Assembly (NCBI GenBank): GCA_964627095.1
Contig: CAZVKH010000001.1
Location: forward strand, 8,451 to 72,450
DNA: 64,000 nt
Direction of reading: 5' to 3'
Origin: an uncultured Candidatus Saccharibacteria bacterium
GTDB lineage: Bacteria; Patescibacteriota; Saccharimonadia; Saccharimonadales; JAUPVS01
Shown here: piece by piece, positions 8,235 through 58,408 of the stretch
Position numbering within the stretch: position 1 is the stretch's first letter
Layout of the letters: each line of letters opens with the position of its first letter
The notes under the pieces: generated by a model
The model's input: only the letters and a program-made list of their open reading frames with translations
Told to the model about the DNA's origin: nothing
Databases searched by the model: none
Translations under genes and position numbers: made by a program

Positions 8235-8723
8235 ATGATTTATATACAACACACATTCAAGATGTTTATGGGCAAAGTTTCGGCCTCTATTGTGGTGTTT
8301 TTGTTTGTTGCTGGGATGGTTCTTACGCCGGCTTCTGCTTTGGCAGCCACTCCCGACTATAGTTGCGGGGCTTACGGTGGCAACGACTATAACAGTAACT
8401 GTCCAACCGACCCTAGTACCCCTAGCTCAAGTAGCAGTTCCTCTAGCAGCTCGACTGGCAGTAGTTCTAGCGACGGAGCGGCGGCCGACACGCCGACAAC
8501 TTCGGATACTACAACTACAACCGACGACAGCACCGCTATCGATACAAACGACAAAAGTTCTTCTACCACCAAGACAGCTGCCGAAGAAGAAGCTGGTACG
8601 TCTAATAGCAGCCGCTGGCTTTTGTTCGGCTTCTCGCTCTTTCTGCTCCTGCTAGCTCTATGGCTGATCTTCTTCTTGCTCAAGCGCCGCAAGCGCCAGC
8701 AAGAAGACAAACCAATGTTCTAG
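8235..8723 (+). CDS. secreted Ser/Thr-rich protein with C-terminal membrane anchor
   Basis: Signal-peptide-like N-terminus (...TPASALAA), a run of nine Ser, a Thr/Asp-rich middle, and a C-terminal helix followed by KRRKRQ. Confidence 0.6.
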   Translation: MIYIQHTFKMFMGKVSASIVVFLFVAGMVLTPASALAATPDYSCGAYGGNDYNSNCPTDPSTPSSSSSSSSSSTGSSSSDGAAADTPTTSDTTTTTDDSTAIDTNDKSSSTTKTAAEEEAGTSNSSRWLLFGFSLFLLLLALWLIFFLLKRRKRQQEDKPMF

Positions 8724-8992
8724 ACGGTCGGCTGGCCGGACGTGAGCTGAGGCTGTTCAACGATTCTATCTATGCCTAGGTCCGGCATCATGTACGATAG
8801 TTCGTCTCGTGCAGTCGGTGGTAGATCTGGGCTAACTTGGGCCACAACCGCTAGGCCATCGTCGCTACGGTCGACGACAACTCTTACAGCACTAGATATA
8901 GCAGGCATTAGATCCCAAAGATCACACTCAGCTGTAACACGGGCTTGCTGGAAGGCCTCATACTCTTGATTAGTGATTCTTCGTTTTGACAT
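8720..8992 (-). CDS. hypothetical protein (90 aa)
   Basis: The ORF has its own promoter with leaderless geometry. No recognisable motif. Confidence 0.5.
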   Translation of the reverse strand: MSKRRITNQEYEAFQQARVTAECDLWDLMPAISSAVRVVVDRSDDGLAVVAQVSPDLPPTARDELSYMMPDLGIDRIVEQPQLTSGQPTV

Positions 8993-8999
8993 ACCAAAA

Positions 9000-9035
9000 A
9001 TCTTACAGCTACTCTGTTAGATATGCAAGCATGAG
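9000..9035 (-). promoter_or_regulatory. promoter: CTCATGCTTGCAT (-35 TTGCAT) N17 TAAGAT, then 7 nt to the ATG at 8992
   Basis: Hexamers and spacing read directly on the minus strand. Shares the 12-mer CTCATGCTTGCA with sites at 9541 and 51888. Confidence 0.45.
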
Positions 9036-9061
9036 CGAAATATGTTTTAAGATGTCTGGGC

Positions 9062-9508
9062 TTAGTCGAGTGCTCGGGCTTGCTGGATCTGTTGCATGAG
9101 GTGACATTTGTCGCCTCCCTCCTCAAAAATTTCACACGCCACCGGGCGCTCTTCGTAAATTCCGCAGTGCTCCCAGCCGTCTTGATCGGTTTCAAGATAC
9201 TTGCAGTCATTCAGCAATACGTACCGACCAAGATTTGCCGCCAATGGTTCGGTTGGTCGCTCAGGGTCAACATAGTAAGTTTTCATACCTGTTTCGGGGT
9301 CCCATTCAAGACCACGCGGATAGGGTGCATCCGGGCGAGCCTTTGGCGATGGCAAGGGAACCGTCAGAAACTTGTTACCCGGTCGAGTCATAAGGGCGAC
9401 TTCTTGAAATGTCAGATCGAATATTTCGTTAGCCCGGCAGCAAGCCGCTTGACACTCATTGCAGTCGTCAACTGGTTCAGATGAAATTTGGATTGGAATT
9501 CTGGACAT
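9062..9508 (-). CDS. YkgJ-family (UPF0153) cysteine-cluster protein
   Basis: N-terminal CNECQAACC (CxxCxxxCC) plus a C-terminal C...C..Y..RP..C cluster typical of the family. Confidence 0.7.
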   Translation of the reverse strand: MSRIPIQISSEPVDDCNECQAACCRANEIFDLTFQEVALMTRPGNKFLTVPLPSPKARPDAPYPRGLEWDPETGMKTYYVDPERPTEPLAANLGRYVLLNDCKYLETDQDGWEHCGIYEERPVACEIFEEGGDKCHLMQQIQQARALD

Positions 9509-9516
9509 ATTCTACG

Positions 9517-9552
9517 ATTATTGAGCCATCTACGGTCGTTTGCAAGCATGAG
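9517..9552 (-). promoter_or_regulatory. promoter: CTCATGCTTGCAA (-35 TTGCAA) N17 AATAAT, then 8 nt to the ATG at 9508
   Basis: Read directly. Contains the same 12-mer as 9024..9035 and 51888..51899. Confidence 0.5.
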
Positions 9553-9576
9553 AGAATTGGAAGCGACTGCCTGGCG

Positions 9577-9667
9577 GCACATTTCGTCGCGGGCTCGGTG
9601 CCAGCACCTGCGCGCGCTCCTCATGAGCGCACCTTCGACTACTGTCTGCTGCGCAGCCAAGTCGAAG
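9577..9667. repeat. diverged copy C of the tRNA-adjacent structured intergenic element
   Basis: Shares the blocks GCACAT, GCTCGG-hairpin-CCTGCGC and T.ATGA.CG.ACC with copies A and B. Hairpins are GGTGC/GCACC (9597..9608) and CTTCGACT/AGTCGAAG (9633..9667). Confidence 0.4.
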
Positions 9668-9690
9668 AACCGGCGTCTTGCTCACTGGCA

Positions 9691-9720
9691 AAGAAAAAGA
9701 GCCATCCTTATGGATGACTC
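9691..9720 (-). terminator. rho-independent terminator of tRNA-Pro
   Basis: On the minus strand, GAGTCATCC-ATAA-GGATGGCTC followed by TTTTTCTTT. The single imperfect pair is G.U on minus but C-A on plus. Confidence 0.6.
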
Positions 9721-9728
9721 ATTTTCTT

Positions 9729-9805
9729 TGGTCGGGGTGAAAGGACTCGAACCTTCGACCTCACGGTCCCAAACCGCGCGCGCTAGCCAACTGCGCCACA
9801 CCCCG
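9729..9805 (-). tRNA. tRNA-Pro (TGG)
   Basis: Acceptor CGGGGTG/CACCCCG, anticodon arm CGCGG-TTTGGGA-CCGTG, T arm GAAGG-TTCGAGT-CCTTT, CCA encoded. Confidence 0.85.
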
Positions 9806-25241: not shown

Positions 25242-26750
25242 TTAACTTTCGCTGAAGACTTTTTGGACTAATTCAAGTTGCCTTTGGTTAGTCGGATCAA
25301 ACTTAGCCTTAAATACTAGGTCAAGCATCGCCGGGTCGTTTTTATACTTTTCCCAAAATGTGACAACTCGCTGCTTACCCTCTAAGTATGCCAAGTCTTT
25401 GTTAAATGTAAGTAGGTGATGCTCCCCGTCAGAAAGTCTATCATCAACGCTGGTTGGCGTGCCTCTAAATATTCGAACGCAGCCCGCGTAAGTGTTGTTT
25501 TGAGCGGTAGAAATTTGTTTTTCAGTTGGCTCTTCGCCGCTTTGAGCTTTTATCAACACTCGTGCCCGCCAAAGTGTTTCGAATACCTTGCGAAAGTCAT
25601 TTCCTTCGTAAGCTAAACCGTAGGCTGCATATCGCTCCAGATTCGGTGCATCCCAACTCGTATCCTCACCTGTTGTTGCTTTCTCGCAAGTCGAAGCAAA
25701 ACCTTCTTCGAAAGTCAGGTAGTCACTTACTTCGCCAGGTTCGGCAGCCGTGTATAGCCCCGTCCCAACCACCGGAATATCTGTCTCGATGCCACTCATG
25801 GCCCGGCCAGCATGAACTATGTATTCGTGCACTACTTTACTTAACATCTCTTTTGCAGAAGAAATAGGACCACGCTTGCCACCAATTACTACAGCCATCT
25901 GTTCTGTTTCCCAAGAAAGTGCAGTCGCCGATGGGTCGATAAGCACTTGGATTCCAGAACTATTATCAGGGTCACGCTGTTGATGAATAAGACTAAAGAT
26001 AGCGTACATATCATCGACGGTAAAATGCTGTTCTTCCGTCGGTCTTGGCTTAACATTTTCGTCCCAATACCGTAATATAGTCGGCTCAAGATCTGGGTTA
26101 TCGCTCAAGACTTTCTCATCCAGATAATCGAGTAGTTCTTGAGGTAGTGGCTTAAGTGGCTCGGCATCATTACGCTTAAGTGGAGATACGACGATAGATT
26201 TGCCTGCAACTTCTACCACAAAGCCATGTTCTAGCTCTTGCTTGAGTTGTTGCCCAACTCCAACCAACTCCTTGCCATCAATCTGACGCCAAATTTCACT
26301 TACTACGCCAGCGTACAAGTCTTGATCGGGTTTGCCGTACAGCTGTTCGTTCAGGTTTTGAACATAGCTAGCCCGGCGATCAAGTTCGTCTTCTGACATC
26401 GTAAAGTGGCCATCAATAAGTTCTTTGGCGCTTAGCAACCAATACATCTCGGCCATTCGATAAGCTGCGCTGTCCCAAATTGCCTCTTTGGCAGTCTGGT
26501 CGGGCTGCGCCTCGGCTAGTTTTAGAACCTCACCCAGAACAGATATGCCATTTCTTAGTTCGTTTTCATCTAAAACTGGGTAATCAAGGGTGGGGTTAAC
26601 AACATCGCCTGCGAGAAAATCATCTCTTTGTTGAGCCCGCTCATCTTTGTCGCCCGCCAAACGTTTATACGACTGAAATGCGATTTCAGGAGTATTGAGA
26701 GGATGGAGTTGTTCGCGTAGCGAGACTCCTTCAAGAAGTATCTCTGACAT
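25242..26750 (-). CDS. DUF1704 / MATCAP-like putative metallo-carboxypeptidase
   Basis: HEYIVH (HExxxH) and a downstream FEEGFA (QEGLA-like) motif. I take the ATG at 26750, 6 nt after a TATAAT. The longer track ORF would run through a repeat and a tRNA terminator. Confidence 0.55.
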   Translation of the reverse strand: MSEILLEGVSLREQLHPLNTPEIAFQSYKRLAGDKDERAQQRDDFLAGDVVNPTLDYPVLDENELRNGISVLGEVLKLAEAQPDQTAKEAIWDSAAYRMAEMYWLLSAKELIDGHFTMSEDELDRRASYVQNLNEQLYGKPDQDLYAGVVSEIWRQIDGKELVGVGQQLKQELEHGFVVEVAGKSIVVSPLKRNDAEPLKPLPQELLDYLDEKVLSDNPDLEPTILRYWDENVKPRPTEEQHFTVDDMYAIFSLIHQQRDPDNSSGIQVLIDPSATALSWETEQMAVVIGGKRGPISSAKEMLSKVVHEYIVHAGRAMSGIETDIPVVGTGLYTAAEPGEVSDYLTFEEGFASTCEKATTGEDTSWDAPNLERYAAYGLAYEGNDFRKVFETLWRARVLIKAQSGEEPTEKQISTAQNNTYAGCVRIFRGTPTSVDDRLSDGEHHLLTFNKDLAYLEGKQRVVTFWEKYKNDPAMLDLVFKAKFDPTNQRQLELVQKVFSES

Positions 26751-26792
26751 ATACATATTATAACATAATAGAATGAGTTTTACGATGCCACT

Positions 26793-26868
26793 GGGGCAAC
26801 GCACATCTACGGCCTTGCTCGGAATGCATTCCTGCGCATGGCCTTGATGACCGAACCCCGGCTGCGCC
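26793..26868. repeat. copy A of the tRNA-adjacent structured intergenic element
   Basis: 65/76 ungapped identity (hand count) to 53731..53806. Internal palindrome GGAATGCATTCC (26821..26832) and hairpin GAACCC/GGGTTC (26853..26878). Confidence 0.55.
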
Positions 26869-26895
26869 GTTTGGGTTCTCGGCGCGTGCTCCATG

Positions 26896-26920
26896 AAAAA
26901 AGCCGAACACAAGGTTCGAC
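26896..26920 (-). terminator. rho-independent terminator of tRNA-Lys
   Basis: On the minus strand, GTCGAAC-CTTGT-GTTCGGC followed by TTTTTT. The imperfect pair is G.U on minus only. Confidence 0.6.
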
Positions 26921-26928
26921 TGTTTTCA

Positions 26929-27005
26929 TGGAGGGCCCACTGGGACTCGAACCCAGGACACCCTGCTTAAAAGGCAGGTGCTCTAACCGGCTGAGCTATG
27001 GGCCC
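26929..27005 (-). tRNA. tRNA-Lys (TTT)
   Basis: Acceptor GGGCCCA/TGGGCCC, anticodon arm CCTGC-CTTTTAA-GCAGG, T arm CTGGG-TTCGAGT-CCCAG, CCA encoded. Confidence 0.9.
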
Positions 27006-53181: not shown

Positions 53182-53715
53182 ATGTCAACTTTTGAACAAG
53201 AACGTCGTTCCCAGATGATCGATATTGCTACCTACCGGCAGATTAAGGAAATCGGCAAAGGCTTGGTGACTTTGTCGGGCGTGGCGTTTTCGGAAAAGCC
53301 CGACTATGACCTTGACCTTACTATAAGCCGCATCACCGACGAAACTTTTGGCGTATTCCCACAAATGGGTTACAAAGTTCGCGTGGCAAGCAAACAAACA
53401 CCGGAGGCAAACCACGAAAACCTATTAATTACCGTCAAAGGTTTTGGAGTAGTCGATAGCGAAGGTGAGCTACTCTACAGACGCAAAGTCGGGATAACAG
53501 TTATCGACCAAGAAGTTAAATATTCGTGGGTAGACCTTTTACTACCGCGTGATGGCAAAACACCAGAGAGAGCTCAGCCACAGAGTCAACTAGAGGCTGG
53601 CATCCGCGAACACTTTGAAGCATGGGAGCATGAAATCAGTGGACGACAATTTTACCTCGACCCGGAAAGCGCCCAAATGCTGATGGCCGAAATTCAGGAA
53701 ATCGCCGAGCTCTAA
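53182..53715 (+). CDS. hypothetical protein (177 aa)
   Basis: ORF with TATAAT 9 nt upstream of the ATG. No motif recognised. Confidence 0.5.
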   Translation: MSTFEQERRSQMIDIATYRQIKEIGKGLVTLSGVAFSEKPDYDLDLTISRITDETFGVFPQMGYKVRVASKQTPEANHENLLITVKGFGVVDSEGELLYRRKVGITVIDQEVKYSWVDLLLPRDGKTPERAQPQSQLEAGIREHFEAWEHEISGRQFYLDPESAQMLMAEIQEIAEL

Positions 53716-53730
53716 GGCTTTTGGCGGGGC

Positions 53731-53806
53731 AGGGCAACGCACATCTGCAGCCATGCTCGGAATATATTCCTGCGCGTGGCTTTGATGACCGAACCTGGGC
53801 TACGCC
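53731..53806. repeat. copy B of the tRNA-adjacent structured intergenic element
   Basis: 65/76 identical to 26793..26868. Palindrome GGAATATATTCC (53759..53770) and hairpin GAACC/GGTTC (53791..53815). Confidence 0.55.
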
Positions 53807-53835
53807 CGACGGTTCAAGTCTTCTCTGTGACCAAG

Positions 53836-53862
53836 AAAAAAGACCCTTCTTGTGAAGAGTCT
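53836..53862 (-). terminator. rho-independent terminator of initiator tRNA
   Basis: On the minus strand, AGACTCTTC-ACAA-GAAGGGTCT followed by TTTTTT. The imperfect pair is G.U on minus only. Confidence 0.6.
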
Positions 53863-53869
53863 CTTTTCT

Positions 53870-53944
53870 TGGTAGCGGGGGCAGGACTCGAACCTGCGAC
53901 CTCGTGGTTATGAGCCACGCGAGCTGCCACTGCTCCACCCCGCG
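53870..53944 (-). tRNA. initiator tRNA-fMet (CAT)
   Basis: Very close to E. coli tRNA-fMet (CGCGGGGTGGAGCAG...GGCTCATAACC...AGGTCG.AGGTTC). The 1:72 position is an unpaired C.U. The anticodon stem ends in GG/CC. Confidence 0.8.
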
Positions 53945-54024
53945 TCGAGTTGAGCAAGCTATAGCATACCAGATGAAAGCTACTTATACAACATCGGTGG
54001 GAAATGTGGTAGAGTATCTTCACT

Positions 54025-54726
54025 ATGACCGATATGCTCGCTCCTTCAGCCGAAGCCGAAAAATTGCCAACAGATGACCCGACAACCATACTAGCACTTG
54101 AAGCACGCGACTTATTACTCGCCGCCAGCCAAGCCGAACCGGGCAGCCCGGATGAGGTAGCCGCCCTAGAGGAAGCCAATAGTCGCTTTAGCGAGCTGGT
54201 TAGCGAAACCCAGGAATTCCTTACCAAATTTGCTCTGAGCCGCCCCCACCCCAGGCATTTTGATGTGCAAGAAGTAGTCCAGGAAACCTACGCCCGAGCC
54301 TATAAGGGTTTACATAATTTTAGGGGTGACGCCAAGTTTTCTACGTGGCTATTTTACGTTTTGCGCAGCTGTACTGATAACTACTGGAGACGCGAGGCAC
54401 GTCACAACAATCAGCCCCTACCCGAAGAAGACGGTTCAGATCCATCCTTGGTTGGTAGTATTGCCGTGGTGTCATCATTAGATACTGGCGAGGTCGACAG
54501 CTTTTTGGACTACAGTAGCCTTTCGCCGGAACTAGAAGCAATGCTGGCCACTTTAAGTCCCAAGCAACAACAAGCTATTCGTATGCATGACGTAATGGGA
54601 CAAACCACTAAAGAATGTGCCGCGCAACTAGGTGTTAGTGAAATTAGTTTTAAGATGAACGTACACCGGGCTCGCCATAACCTACGCCGCGAATTCCCCG
54701 ATGCCAGAAACTGGTTAGAAGAATAA
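54025..54726 (+). CDS. sigma-70-family (group 4/ECF-like) sigma factor with an acidic ~70-aa N-terminal extension
   Basis: Region 2 (ETYARAYKGLHNFRGDAKFSTWLFYV) and region 4 (QQQAIRMHDVMGQTTKECAAQLGVSEISFKMNVHRARHNLR). Confidence 0.8.
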   Translation: MTDMLAPSAEAEKLPTDDPTTILALEARDLLLAASQAEPGSPDEVAALEEANSRFSELVSETQEFLTKFALSRPHPRHFDVQEVVQETYARAYKGLHNFRGDAKFSTWLFYVLRSCTDNYWRREARHNNQPLPEEDGSDPSLVGSIAVVSSLDTGEVDSFLDYSSLSPELEAMLATLSPKQQQAIRMHDVMGQTTKECAAQLGVSEISFKMNVHRARHNLRREFPDARNWLEE

Positions 54727-54728
54727 TC

Positions 54729-54756
54729 TTGACAAATTAGCAACTTCATGTATAAT
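54729..54756 (+). promoter_or_regulatory. consensus sigma-70 promoter TTGACA-N16-TATAAT
   Basis: Exact hexamers read 3 nt after the sigma-factor stop codon. Confidence 0.6.
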
Positions 54757-54764
54757 ACTTAGTG

Positions 54765-54776
54765 TTGTCATGACAA
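54765..54776. promoter_or_regulatory. perfect 12-bp palindrome TTGTCATGACAA at the predicted transcription start
   Basis: Self-complementary 12-mer 9 nt downstream of the TATAAT. Candidate operator. Confidence 0.35.
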
Positions 54777-54814
54777 AACAAACAACAAAATAAAACAACA
54801 GGAAACTACACACA

Positions 54815-54898
54815 ATGAAATCACAACTCGCCTACGAGTTCGCCCAAACCCAAGATCAGGCAGTTTCACAATTTGACGATCTAATCTCATCTTTGTAA
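54815..54898 (+). CDS. 27-codon acidic ORF (MKSQLAYEFAQTQDQAVSQFDDLISSL)
   Basis: Hand-translated. AGGAA lies ~10 nt upstream in a CA-rich leader. Bracketed by the consensus promoter and a terminator. Confidence 0.35.
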   Translation: MKSQLAYEFAQTQDQAVSQFDDLISSL

Positions 54899-54923
54899 AC
54901 CTACTCGATCAAACTCCCATAAA

Positions 54924-54956
54924 AGAGCCCTTTAAGCGCAAAGGGTTCTTTTTATT
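54924..54956 (+). terminator. rho-independent terminator
   Basis: AGAGCCCTTT-AAGCGC-AAAGGGTTCT followed by TTTTATT. The one imperfect pair is G.U on the plus strand. Confidence 0.6.
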
Positions 54957-55034
54957 GCCGTTCGCCTTTCAGCTAGCTGGTCAACAGAGGCAAAACATGG
55001 TATATTCACTGCTGTCCATGTAACAAGTTTATAG

Positions 55035-55111
55035 GGCGGCGTAGCTCAGTTGGTTAGAGCACAGGACTCATAAGCCTGGGGTCACAAGTTCAAATCTTGT
55101 CGCCGCTACCA
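55035..55111 (+). tRNA. elongator tRNA-Met (CAT)
   Basis: Closely resembles E. coli metT (GTAGCTCAGTTGGTTAGAGCACA..ACTCATAA....GGGGTCACA.GTTC.AATC). Acceptor GGCGGCG/CGCCGCT. A31.G39 mismatch. Confidence 0.8.
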
Positions 55112-55167
55112 AACTTATTTGATATCGCTTGTGTTTAACCCCGTTTGGGGTAATAATAAACGGTATT

Positions 55168-55842
55168 ATGGATATGGATCTTAAACCCCCGACGCAGCCC
55201 AAATATCAGCTTAAGGAAACTCCGCCACCCGGCGCAACGCCACCTGAACCGCAGATGGACGACCCCTTTAAAGTTGATCCGCCACCACCCGAACTAACCG
55301 TACCTAAACCAAAGAAAAAACGCAGCGGCAAAGCTAAAAAGGCTTTGCTGGTTATTTTAGTATTGGCTCTGCTTGGTGCGGCCGGCTATGGTATTTACTA
55401 CTGGCAACACCAGCAAGTCGACAAACTAGCTAAAGAAAACCAGGCTCTAACCGCCCAACTAGCTGCCGCCAATAAAAAAGCTAGTGATGCCGAAGCCGAG
55501 AACGCCAAGCTTAGCGAAGCAGCCACCCCGCCAACGGCCGATACTTTGGTAATTACGGCTGCTACCGCCGATTGCCAGGCCGAGGTTGACCCAGCCACTA
55601 AGAAGGCTTTGGTATACACCCAAGGCACGCAAGGCACTGACAAAAAGAAAGTGCTGTATTCGACTGATAAGACCTTTGCCAAGGTTAGCGCTACCTGTGC
55701 TGCCACCGCTAACGCCACCGAGCCAGCCACGCTGTACTATGCTAAATTAGCCGGTACTACCTGGACGGTCATCTATGCTGACACCGCCGAGCCCGACGCC
55801 GACGTAACTGCTTTGTACGCCATCCCAACTGAATTCAAATAA
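55168..55842 (+). CDS. hypothetical bitopic protein (Pro-rich N-terminus, transmembrane helix, coiled coil, C-terminal domain)
   Basis: ORF from the ATG at 55168. KKKRSGKAKK then a transmembrane helix. No motif recognised. Confidence 0.5.
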   Translation: MDMDLKPPTQPKYQLKETPPPGATPPEPQMDDPFKVDPPPPELTVPKPKKKRSGKAKKALLVILVLALLGAAGYGIYYWQHQQVDKLAKENQALTAQLAAANKKASDAEAENAKLSEAATPPTADTLVITAATADCQAEVDPATKKALVYTQGTQGTDKKKVLYSTDKTFAKVSATCAATANATEPATLYYAKLAGTTWTVIYADTAEPDADVTALYAIPTEFK

Positions 55843-57287: not shown

Positions 57288-57291
57288 AATA

Positions 57292-57326
57292 TCATGCTTG
57301 AGCTTACACCGTTTAACCTCTATACT
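57292..57326 (+). promoter_or_regulatory. promoter TCATGCTTGAGC (-35 TTGAGC) N17 TATACT
   Basis: Read directly. Shares TCATGCTTG with the 12-mer promoters. Followed by a ~30-nt leader with GAGAGGG before the ATG at 57359. Confidence 0.5.
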
Positions 57327-57358
57327 AACTAGCAATAGGTAAAAGAGAGGGTTAACGC

Positions 57359-58408
57359 ATGGCTAGACTACCAGTTCCGGGCGGCGATACGGGTACATGG
57401 GGCACTGTACTCAATGACTTCTTAGGGGTAGCACATAATAGCGACGGCACGCTGAAGTCAATCACTTCGGCTACCGTGTCAGATTTTTCCGAAGCAGCCA
57501 TCGACGCTGCCGGTAGCGCCATGACAGCAGGTCCGGGCGTTTCTGTAACTGTCGACGATAACGCCAACACCATCACTGTTGGTAACGTCCGAACTACTAA
57601 TGTGCAAACTGCCAGCTACACACTGGCCTTAACCGATGCATTTAAGACCGTCCAGTTTGATGCTGCCGGTAATGTTTTCCCTACTCTTACCATCCCGACC
57701 AACGACGTTATACCATTTGCAATTGGAACGGTAGTTTATGTCACTCACTTAGCTACCGCCCGCTATACCACTGTAGCCGCTTCTGGAGGTGTTACACTGC
57801 AAGCTCCTAGCGGTCTTTCGGTTGGGCCAAAGCAAACCCTAACTCTGCAAAAAACCGCCAGCGATACCTGGATTGTTACCAGCGCCATCAGTGCCAGTGA
57901 CCCAGGCGTACTTCACGAAGTTGGCGCCTTGCCACCGGGTTACTCGCATCTTGGTACAGTTTCAACACTTAGCCTAAATGGTCAGATTTGGGTTCCTTTC
58001 GAAATCCAGTCGCCAATGGCGATGCCGGCAATAGTCATAAGGGTCACCACTGCCGTACCCGGATCACAGTTTAACCTGAGTATCTATCAGTGTGATACTT
58101 CTTGGACGGCTGCCTCATTTATTGGCACCATAATCAACCAGACGGCTGTTACCGGACTAAATACTATTACCCCACCGGCCACTACACTGCCACCAGGGCG
58201 TTATAGTATAAAGCTACGTTATTCTGACCTTTCGGCTATCGATATCCGAGCCATTAACTGTGCTCCGCCTTTCGTGGATCCCAGCATTGGTGCCACCGCT
58301 GGTGTCCAAAAACTAACCGGCTCATCTGGTAGTAACGACTGGACCGCTGCCACCTTAGCGACCGGAGGCTTTCAGCTCCCTTTCTTCTTCAGCCAACGGG
58401 CTCTGTAG
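57359..58408 (+). CDS. hypothetical protein with phage tail-fibre-like N-terminus
   Basis: MARLPVPGGDTGTWGTVLNDFLGVAHNSDGTLK resembles the N-terminal motif I recall from actinophage minor-tail/fibre proteins. The rest is beta-rich and Thr/Ala/Gly-rich. Confidence 0.45.
   Translation: MARLPVPGGDTGTWGTVLNDFLGVAHNSDGTLKSITSATVSDFSEAAIDAAGSAMTAGPGVSVTVDDNANTITVGNVRTTNVQTASYTLALTDAFKTVQFDAAGNVFPTLTIPTNDVIPFAIGTVVYVTHLATARYTTVAASGGVTLQAPSGLSVGPKQTLTLQKTASDTWIVTSAISASDPGVLHEVGALPPGYSHLGTVSTLSLNGQIWVPFEIQSPMAMPAIVIRVTTAVPGSQFNLSIYQCDTSWTAASFIGTIINQTAVTGLNTITPPATTLPPGRYSIKLRYSDLSAIDIRAINCAPPFVDPSIGATAGVQKLTGSSGSNDWTAATLATGGFQLPFFFSQRAL

Follow-up and report, generated by a model that had tools for sequence, protein, structure and literature searches.

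A conserved hairpin within duplicated tRNA 3'-end sequence in Saccharibacteria: a candidate family of gene-less insertion modules

Saccharibacteria have tiny genomes and few recognised mobile elements. A 64,000-nucleotide (nt) stretch of an uncultured Candidatus Saccharibacteria contig (CAZVKH010000001.1, hereafter the window) contains a short element, named copy C, between the terminator of a tRNA-Pro gene and two minus-strand genes that encode a 90-amino-acid (aa) product and a YkgJ-like protein. The element consists of a conserved 59-nt hairpin (H1), a second hairpin (hairpin 2) and flanking sequences. Its comparison with related units revealed that the copies are homologous, that H1 covaries, that both flanks originate from the adjoining tRNA, that units are arranged in tandem or around cargo genes, and that they are present at some loci and absent from orthologous ones. 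These units may constitute a family of insertion or recombination modules acting at tRNA 3' ends.

The features of the locus, and the two other copies in the window (A and B), are given below. No strand is assigned unless one is indicated, a' and b' are the tRNA-derived segments to the left and right of H1, and the sequence blocks, the tip hairpins and hairpin 2 were read directly from the sequence.

8724-9508, minus strand: two apparently accessory genes, a 90-aa open reading frame (ORF) and a CxxCxxCC/YkgJ-like ORF
9549-9562: expected place of the displaced tRNA-Pro 3'-end copy (a'), degenerate
9563-9580: H0, GC-rich mini-hairpin TGCC-TGGC-GGCA, found in subfamily 2 only
9574-9632: H1, conserved irregular 59-nt hairpin written on the plus strand, identified by covariance models R1 and R2 and by covariation
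9577-9582: GCACAT block
9580-9582 with 9623-9625: stem P1 of H1, CAT with ATG
9593-9598: GCTCGG block
9597-9608: tip hairpin of H1, GGTGC-CA-GCACC, with the stem 9597-9601 paired to 9604-9608
9607-9613: CCTGCGC block
9621-9633: TCATGAGCGCACC block
9628-9639: b' CGCACCTTCGAC, 5' strand of hairpin 2, reverse complement of tRNA-Pro nt ~57-46
9633-9640 with 9660-9667: hairpin 2, CTTCGACT paired with AGTCGAAG
9646-9656: tip mini-hairpin CTGC-TGC-GCAG, which contains the GCTGCGC motif
9648-9654: GCTGCGC in the loop of hairpin 2
9660-9667: b'c AGTCGAAG, complement of b' and 3' strand of hairpin 2, conserved in the related locus L035
9668-9690: diverged continuation (div) AACCGGCGTCTTGCTCACTGGCA, homologous to AACCGGAGTCTTACGCC in L035
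9691-9728, minus strand: tRNA-Pro terminator (A-tract, hairpin 9699-9720, T-tract), palindromic with the tRNA CCA end
9729-9805, minus strand: tRNA-Pro (TGG), source of the copied sequence
26787-26895: copy A, adjoining tRNA-Lys (26929-27005), with an a' remnant GCCACTGGG (26787-26795), H1 (26798-26856), hairpin 2 (26853-26878) and div up to 26895
53722-53830: copy B, adjoining an initiator-type tRNA-Met (53870-53944), with an a' remnant TGGCGGGGCAGG (53722-53733), H1 (53736-53794) and then hairpin 2 and div

Exactly three copies were found in the window by covariance model with the filters off, and the spacing CACAT-N10-GCTCGG-N8-CCTGCGC-N7-TNATGANCGNACC is the same in A, B and C. The covariance model R2 was built from 15 copies, excluding copy C and all C-like copies to avoid a circular test, and it scored copy C (9574-9632) at 36.9 bits (E 9.4e-9 over 64 kb and both strands), the second-best match in the window being 8.3 bits. 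Model R1 scored copy C at 64.2 bits. A preliminary description, made from the letters of the window, had considered copy C as a third, diverged copy of A and B with two hairpins and with GCTGCGC in the loop of the second; the blocks, hairpins and motif are all present as described, and the R2 score places the similarity to A and B well beyond chance. When copy C was folded alone it was no better than shuffled sequence (z -1.2 and -1.0), and its support is comparative, derived from other copies, and not thermodynamic.

Relatives were obtained from pattern scans of 185,579 species genomes and of JGI metagenomes, which gave 24 true loci labelled almost entirely as Saccharibacteria, Saccharimonadales or Patescibacteria (loci are designated below by L numbers). 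Two further hits, L004 (Betaproteobacteria) and L023, were discarded as chance pattern matches that lack the hairpin. Locus L006 (DATHJH010000025.1) is titled Candidatus Limnocylindria (Chloroflexota), and its contig is identical over the unit to the metagenome locus L022 and has a Saccharibacteria-type tRNA-Met context; it is probably a mis-binned contig. The units are located on the strand opposite to the tRNA gene, just past its terminator and always in one orientation, and they adjoin ten types of tRNA: Lys, Met, Pro, Asp, Asn, Arg(TCG), Arg(GCG), Val, Ser and Gln. Searches of Rfam 15 at the gathering threshold gave only tRNAs and no match to H1, and at E<=10 the region 9500-9740 gave a lone chance microRNA match (16 bits against a threshold of 90). 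No match to the element was found by blastn in phage and plasmid records, and a pattern scan of IMG/VR gave 0 loci with the strict pattern and 19 with a looser one, all of them chance matches according to the covariance model (<=16.5 bits).

Two subfamilies of H1 were distinguished. Subfamily 1 (CACATC...TGATGA) includes A and B, and subfamily 2 (CATTTCG...CTCATGA, with the extra mini-hairpin H0) includes C, L009, L012, L014, L015 and L018. Hairpins equivalent to H0 are located between a' and H1 in L012, L014, L015, L018 and L010. Both subfamilies are found at tRNA-Met, and the genome of the window likewise has both. A partial second H1 core (GTGCTCGGTGCAAGCACCTGCGCG, 36 bits) is nested in hairpin 2 of the first unit at L018 (4811-4844).

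The structure of H1 was analysed by aligning 22 distinct copies, taken from genomes and metagenomes of Saccharibacteria. H1 is one irregular hairpin composed of P1 (CAUC/GAUG), P2 (five variable pairs), a conserved core with the invariant bulged blocks GCUCGG and CCUGCGC (GCTCGG and CCTGCGC in the DNA), and a 5-bp tip stem with a variable loop. Paired cells amounted to 89.6%, compared with 25-44% when the partners were slid, and the covariation score was 0.363 against 0.01-0.07 for slid partners and 0.153 for shuffled alignments, a value not reached by any of 500 shuffles. Three pairs of the tip alternate among AU, UA, GC and CG with 0 unpaired cells in the 22 copies. The five cleanly covarying pairs contain no G-U (0/110 cells), and such Watson-Crick-only change would be expected of a DNA hairpin or of a requirement on both strands. 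Elsewhere in H1, plus-strand U-G exceeded A-C (16 vs 8), mostly at one doubtful pair, and the G-U and A-C counts over H1 and hairpin 2 gave no strand bias, the script used for hairpin 2 being ungapped and crude. A generic test for structured RNA gave a mixed outcome, with compensatory changes on one side and, on the other, clean pairs without G-U and no strand bias. No plus-strand promoter was found for the element, and H1 itself was ruled out as a promoter because no -35/-10 is conserved.

Both flanks of H1 are copies of the adjoining tRNA. On the plus strand, directly to the left of H1, a' is a reverse complement of 16-18 nt of the 3' end of its own tRNA, comprising CCA, the discriminator, the acceptor 3' strand and the T-stem 3' strand, to which T-loop nt 60-59 are added in four fresh copies. 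The match is 18/18 in Asp (L001) and Val (L008) and 16/16 in Met (L007, L014). To the right of H1, CGAA (T-loop nt 57-54) precedes b', in which the variable loop and T-stem 5' strand of the same tRNA are copied as reverse complement, with matches of 13 nt in Val, 14 nt in Met (L014), 12 nt in Asn and 14/16 in Asp; b' is tRNA-derived likewise in the Asp, Asn, Val, Met and Arg copies. The b' of copy C (CGCACCTTCGAC) is identical in 11 of 12 positions to CGAACCTTCGAC of tRNA-Pro (9748-9759), and that of its orthologue L035 in 12/12. Only weak similarity remains at the a' position of copy C, and the orthologous L035 unit has GGTCGGGGTGAAAGG (15/16) at this position, immediately 5' of GCGAC. Among 18 units, a' matched the cognate tRNA at 15-16/16 in 7, with a maximum of 13 for non-cognate tRNAs, and b' agreed with the T-stem and variable loop of the cognate tRNA at 6-7/7 positions in 9, with a non-cognate mean of 3.1. 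In the partial, inverted copy of the last ~33 nt of the tRNA, H1 stands in for nt 58 and in some units for nt 58-60.

In hairpin 2 the 3' strand is complementary to b' and runs on into a diverged copy, in sense orientation, of the T-loop, T-stem 3' strand, acceptor and CCA. In copy C, b'c corresponds in sense to the variable loop and T-stem 5' strand of tRNA-Pro, and div stands, also in sense, where the T-loop, T-stem 3' strand, acceptor 3' strand and CCA would lie; equivalent diverged sense copies are present in other units. The hairpin-2 stems of A, B and C are unlike because the neighbouring tRNAs differ, and their differences are not independent compensatory evolution. The argument of the preliminary description from pairing preserved while stem sequence is replaced stands for H1 and is not supported for hairpin 2, whose strands are tRNA-derived. 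The embedding of the element in duplicated tRNA sequence had been missed. The further step from preserved structure to an RNA was not borne out, given the 0/110 G-U cells, the lack of strand bias and of a plus-strand promoter, and the presence/absence at orthologous loci described below.

A repeat of the tRNA 3' end of at least 13/16 was confined to the H1-bearing tRNAs and to two H1-less units (L035 and the L005 elongator tRNA-Met), and about 30 other tRNAs gave only 8-11/16. Direct repeats of 15-18 nt with an intact tRNA adjoining were found in L001, L007, L008, L010, L014, L016, L025 and L035. The direct repeat of a tRNA-targeting integrative element is therefore present in the family, with a' decayed in copy C itself. 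The H1-less unit of L005 (3667-3760), 3' of the elongator tRNA-Met, is a pseudo T-arm with a 17-nt expanded loop and an acceptor 3' strand (14/16 to the tRNA), and it is lacking at the orthologous window site 57288-57360; as judged from its sequence, this filler appears to be another type of occupant of the T-loop slot. In the identical contigs L013 and L024, the neighbour of the unit has a tRNA-Arg(TCT) body for which ARAGORN makes no call, and its acceptor 5' strand GCGAACG is unpaired with the 3' strand CGGGGGT. This tRNA looks chimeric or pseudo, possibly by recombination at its 3' end.

The tips of hairpin 2 belong to families that are common to different tRNA types, while the stems track the local tRNA. 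The tip hairpin GGCTNCGCC was found in A, B, L011, L017 and L016, CAGCTGAAGCTG in the Val (L008), Met (L010) and Arg (L026) copies, and a tip of the type CNGC-TRC-GCNG in A, B, L011, L017, L018 and L035. Mini-hairpins of this last type (window 9646-9656, 26859-26869 and 53797-53807; L035 2048-2058) recur not only at the tip of hairpin 2 but also as H0 and within the L035 T-loop slot. The invariant 3' block of H1 likewise contains CTGCGC, and CTGCGC/GCTGCGC may be a shared recognition motif.

Evidence of gain and loss was obtained at several loci. The tRNA-Pro locus was sampled in an unbiased way through the adjacent ABC1 kinase gene (84-86% identity); L029, L030 and L031 have tRNA-Pro and its terminator without H1 and with left neighbours that are all different, and a fourth contig (P0007), judged empty by spacing alone, shows the same tight gene spacing. 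The L035 unit is orthologous to copy C (GTCGAAG and AACCGG.GTCTT are shared, and a' is intact) and carries a 21-nt mini-hairpin, CGGC-TAC-GCCG, in place of the H0 and H1 of copy C, whereas the locus in the window holds H0 and H1 plus cargo. Four syntenic relatives have neither the YkgJ-like gene nor the 90-aa ORF; YkgJ-like homologues were also tried as a route to empty sites and abandoned, giving few matches with different synteny. At the tRNA-Lys locus, L032, whose DUF1704 gene is 78% identical, lacks exactly 80 nt (26796-26875) that comprise the linker, H1, b' and tip, with TGGG repeats at the bounds. The DUF1704/MATCAP-like gene beside copy A (25242-26750) has no close orthologue in the three nearest relatives, with one 78% match on a short contig and a next best of 54%. 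The genes adjoining C and A are missing or much farther off in close relatives, and they look like accessory cargo at tRNA 3' ends. L009 is ~97% identical to C over H0, H1 and b', with unrelated flanks and no tRNA. Between copy B and L005, identity amounts to 97.5% for H1 together with hairpin 2 and to 100% for tRNA-Met, with an unrelated left flank and an exchanged terminator.

L012/L019/L020 and L025 have tandem or decayed units upstream of the intact ones. An island of ~6 kb in L016 lies between two units that are nearly identical, both with an odd extra G in a'; the units of L025 enclose 1.9 kb, and the unit of L018 is separated from tRNA-Met by a 5-kb island. Cargo genes encode HigB-like and RelB/YafQ toxin-antitoxin systems, a methyltransferase, a GDSL lipase and an HTH-M78 regulator. 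No integrase or recombinase gene was found in the cargo islands of L016 and L025, the units contain no ORF, and no recombinase was found among the neighbours in the window.

We propose, with about even confidence, that copy C belongs to a Saccharibacteria-specific family of gene-less, non-autonomous insertion or recombination modules of tRNA 3' ends (~150-200 bp) in which H1 is recognised in folded form. On the strand opposite to the tRNA, a complete unit would consist of a' (16-18 nt), H1 at T-loop position 58, CGAA and b', a small tip hairpin, the complement of b' leading into a diverged sense tRNA 3' end, the terminator and the intact tRNA. The modules would enter at or next to the T-loop and 3' end of the tRNA, which would be kept intact with its terminator while the older 3' end is displaced outward. 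Entry at this point with outward displacement would produce the direct repeat, the tandem arrays and the position of cargo islands between units, and a 3'-end repeat reaching the T-loop, an intact tRNA, polar tandem arrays and cargo are together the signature of repeated site-specific insertion. H1 could serve, as folded DNA, as the recognition hairpin of a putative trans-acting recombinase or transposase, and hairpin 2, in analogy to folded attC and CTX-phi attP sites, could imitate the target T-arm as a duplex. Our inferences are that the modules are actively mobile, that they act as DNA and that an enzyme exists.

Several points weigh against this proposal. No recombinase, transposase or reverse transcriptase adjoins any unit in the neighbourhoods scanned, the sole recombinases seen being large serine recombinases in separate islands (L018, L033). 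No terminal inverted repeats and no free or circular form were found, and the phage, plasmid and viral collections searched yielded no copy. Deletion between short repeats, and not insertion, could be the origin of both presence/absence cases. The existence of H1-less units (L035; L005 3667-3760) means that H1 may be a secondary occupant of a scaffold made otherwise, the proposal does not account for the matching of both arms of hairpin 2 to a new tRNA, and the strongly kept unpaired nucleotides would fit an RNA-protein complex equally well.

This last point is shared by an explanation that we consider unlikely, in which H1 and its flanks are a functional small RNA tied to the neighbouring tRNA. 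Read on the plus strand it would be antisense or guide-like, a' and b' pairing with tRNA nt 59-76 and 44-57 and A58 lying at the base of H1; the minus-strand version would be a 3' trailer made by read-through, in which a pseudo 3' half is set against an anti-3'-end segment as a processing or decoy switch. Covariation together with invariant bulged nucleotides is typical of protein-binding RNA, a' and b' track the adjacent tRNA even in lineage-specific T-stem variants of tRNA-Met, the terminator is workable on both strands and would end a plus-strand RNA, and the slight plus-strand excess of U-G over A-C, mostly from one doubtful pair, has the right direction. However, A, B, C, L005 and L006 have a truncated a' or none, with H1 still ~97% conserved, so the supposed guide arm is dispensable. 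There is no promoter upstream, in B a gene ends 20 nt off, the well-defined stems are without G-U, no D box or ACA box stands at the required spacing, and close relatives with the same tRNA do not carry the unit. A role as cis-regulatory 5' leader (riboswitch or attenuator) for the minus-strand gene that comes next is effectively refuted and retains hardly any credence: such a gene follows in A (DUF1704/MATCAP-like) and C (YkgJ-like), but none follows in B and many other loci, the following genes are mutually unrelated, a promoter-like site lies between element and gene in C, and Rfam gives no match. The preliminary description had already noted that a simple leader role does not fit all copies.

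It is also doubtful, to a similar degree as the small RNA, that the zigzag of reverse-complement, sense and real tRNA is a passive by-product, left by the integrase scars of successive islands or by template-switch or fold-back errors at palindromic terminators, and that H1 is an unrelated selfish hairpin, like those of REP or PATE elements (see below), which tolerates or prefers a T-loop-like slot. The other fillers of the slot in H1-less units (21 nt in L035, 17 nt in L005), the terminator modules swapped between otherwise identical loci and the large-serine-recombinase islands integrated at such tRNA 3' ends (L018, L033) are in agreement with it, and Dehalococcoides is known to have tandem island arrays at ssrA, a tRNA-like gene (PMC3146451). 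Against it, H1 is found at the same nucleotide and in the same orientation in all of more than 25 copies and never away from tRNA-derived sequence, a fixed architecture over ten tRNA types is not expected of random scars, and the hairpin-2 tips are inherited along with H1.

Comparison with known systems gave partial likenesses. A T-loop sublocation class of integrase sites was reportedly defined by Williams in 2002. The units resemble the islands and prophages of tRNA and tmRNA 3' ends in that the last 16-18 nt are repeated up to the T-loop with the tRNA intact, and in their tandem arrays with older copies outward and cargo between repeats. They differ from them in their size of 150-200 bp, in the lack of an integrase, in the hairpin exactly at nt 58, and in a second, inverted T-arm copy that forms hairpin 2. 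The tandem islands at ssrA of Dehalococcoides are integrase-borne (PMC3146451).

Like miniature inverted-repeat transposable elements (MITEs), repetitive extragenic palindromes and bacterial interspersed mosaic elements (REP/BIME) and the palindrome-associated transposable elements (PATEs) of IS200/IS605, the units are short, multi-copy and gene-less with a bulged hairpin, and they are intergenic, 3' of genes and polymorphic in presence/absence. They are unlike these elements in having no terminal inverted repeats, a single hairpin without a left-end/right-end pair, a strictly tRNA-derived setting and both flanks copied from the target. With respect to MITEs, the unit ends (AGCGCACATC... and ...T-tract) are not inverted repeats, and the 16-18-nt repeat is defined by the tRNA and atypical as a target-site duplication. 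With respect to PATEs, H1 stands directly after TTCG on the tRNA-sense strand (CGAA is near-invariant), as one hairpin, with nt 58-60 lost. No cognate transposase was identified for the H1 units.

Integron attC and CTX-phi attP(+) sites are similar in keeping structure more than sequence, in having inverted target-like copies that fold into a duplex mimic, in polar additions by a fixed site and in toxin-antitoxin cargo without its own recombinase. Unlike in these sites, the target is the T-arm of a tRNA and not attI or dif, and no link to IntI or Xer came to light. The R''/R' consensus of attC is matched partly only (hairpin 2 CGAAC...GTTCG), the indel junction between A and L032 does not start with TT, and no tyrosine recombinase was found in the neighbourhoods scanned. 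A double-stranded site of dif/Xer type was rejected, its arms not being related inverted repeats, and the covariation of the palindromic H1 centre argues for a hairpin and not for such a site.

Among RNA systems, box C/D and H/ACA guides are similar in the two tRNA-complementary arms that flank a hairpin and in UGAUGA, which resembles a C box and is present in subfamily 1, copy C having UCAUGA. The arms are, however, far longer than real guides, and one is dispensable. There is no ACA at 14-15 nt and no CUGA, D or D' at the right or a constant spacing, and we know of no partner proteins for H/ACA or C/D guides in bacteria. The resemblance to these guides, and to a hammerhead or a group II domain V, was rejected since the defining boxes or spacing are absent. 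A tRNA-like cloverleaf or minihelix gene on either strand was also discarded, as the acceptor strands are unpaired in L014 and B and ARAGORN finds nothing. Group I introns of Patescibacteria are likewise structured insertions that interrupt tRNA sequence in the same phylum, but they are longer than 200 nt, self-splicing and located at position 35/36 of functional tRNAs (PMC13011429), whereas H1 has 59 nt and lies at nt 58 of a non-functional partial 3' copy. The group I intron model RF00028 gave no match to H1.

A tiny gene-less unit, a covarying hairpin at one exact T-loop nucleotide and an inverted T-arm repeat make the family unusual, and to our knowledge a conserved hairpin at one exact T-loop nucleotide with a stem matching the local tRNA has not been described for any integrase, transposon or RNA family. 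It is quite improbable, in our estimation, that H1 and hairpin 2 form a programmable, target-matched recombination site or guide with the stem re-specified to the local T-stem and variable loop; folded single-stranded DNA (ssDNA), or an RNA or reverse-transcribed intermediate, would then read the T-arms and copy the target on both sides. Reverse transcriptases stop at m1A58, and the 18-nt a' ends exactly at this stop point, which makes a tRNA-templated cDNA origin possible. A truly new target-matched (programmable) or tRNA-templated mechanism, such a cDNA origin included, is nevertheless given only a slim chance. If an enzyme or an RNA intermediate does underlie the units, they would represent a new kind of tRNA-directed insertion.

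The family marks tRNA 3' ends as sites of gain and loss of accessory genes, YkgJ-like and DUF1704-like in the window and toxin-antitoxin and methyltransferase genes elsewhere, and models R1 and R2 are a sequence handle for finding such sites. It also constitutes a caution for the search of RNA motifs, because stems that vary and remain paired can be inverted copies of different neighbouring genes.

A scan of both strands gave the tRNA-Pro terminator 9 pairs on the minus and 5 on the plus strand, and its A/T tracts together with CCA/TGG form a palindrome with the real tRNA end. The terminators of the window (9691-9728, 26896-26928 and 53826-53869) and of the empty sites L029, L030 and L031, which are of the same style, are built symmetrically as CCA-AAG-AAAAA-hairpin-TTTTT-CTT-TGG; the CCA end of the tRNA belongs to the palindrome, and the hairpin module turns over quickly. 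The near-identical terminators of C and L001 suggest that the terminator travels with the unit; the similar ones at the empty sites and the exchange between B and L005 speak against this.

The window (53590-55200) and L005 (1-1600) form a mosaic, in which the tRNA-Met genes, the promoters and a small-ORF region (54690-55200) are 95-100% identical and the intervening gene for an extracytoplasmic function (ECF) sigma factor (54025-54726) is only ~45% identical; this gene would appear from the alignment to have been replaced or to be hypervariable. In L018 (4750-9915) a serine-recombinase island with a truncated 287-aa ORF (8497-9360) abuts the 3' end of tRNA-Met. Another island abuts the 3' end of tRNA-Lys in L033 (349-5400), where the gene for a 531-aa large serine recombinase (368-1963) overlaps the tRNA end. 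This island also encodes a REP_ORF2-G2P rolling-circle initiator and may be an ssDNA phage or plasmid integrated in a Saccharibacterium.

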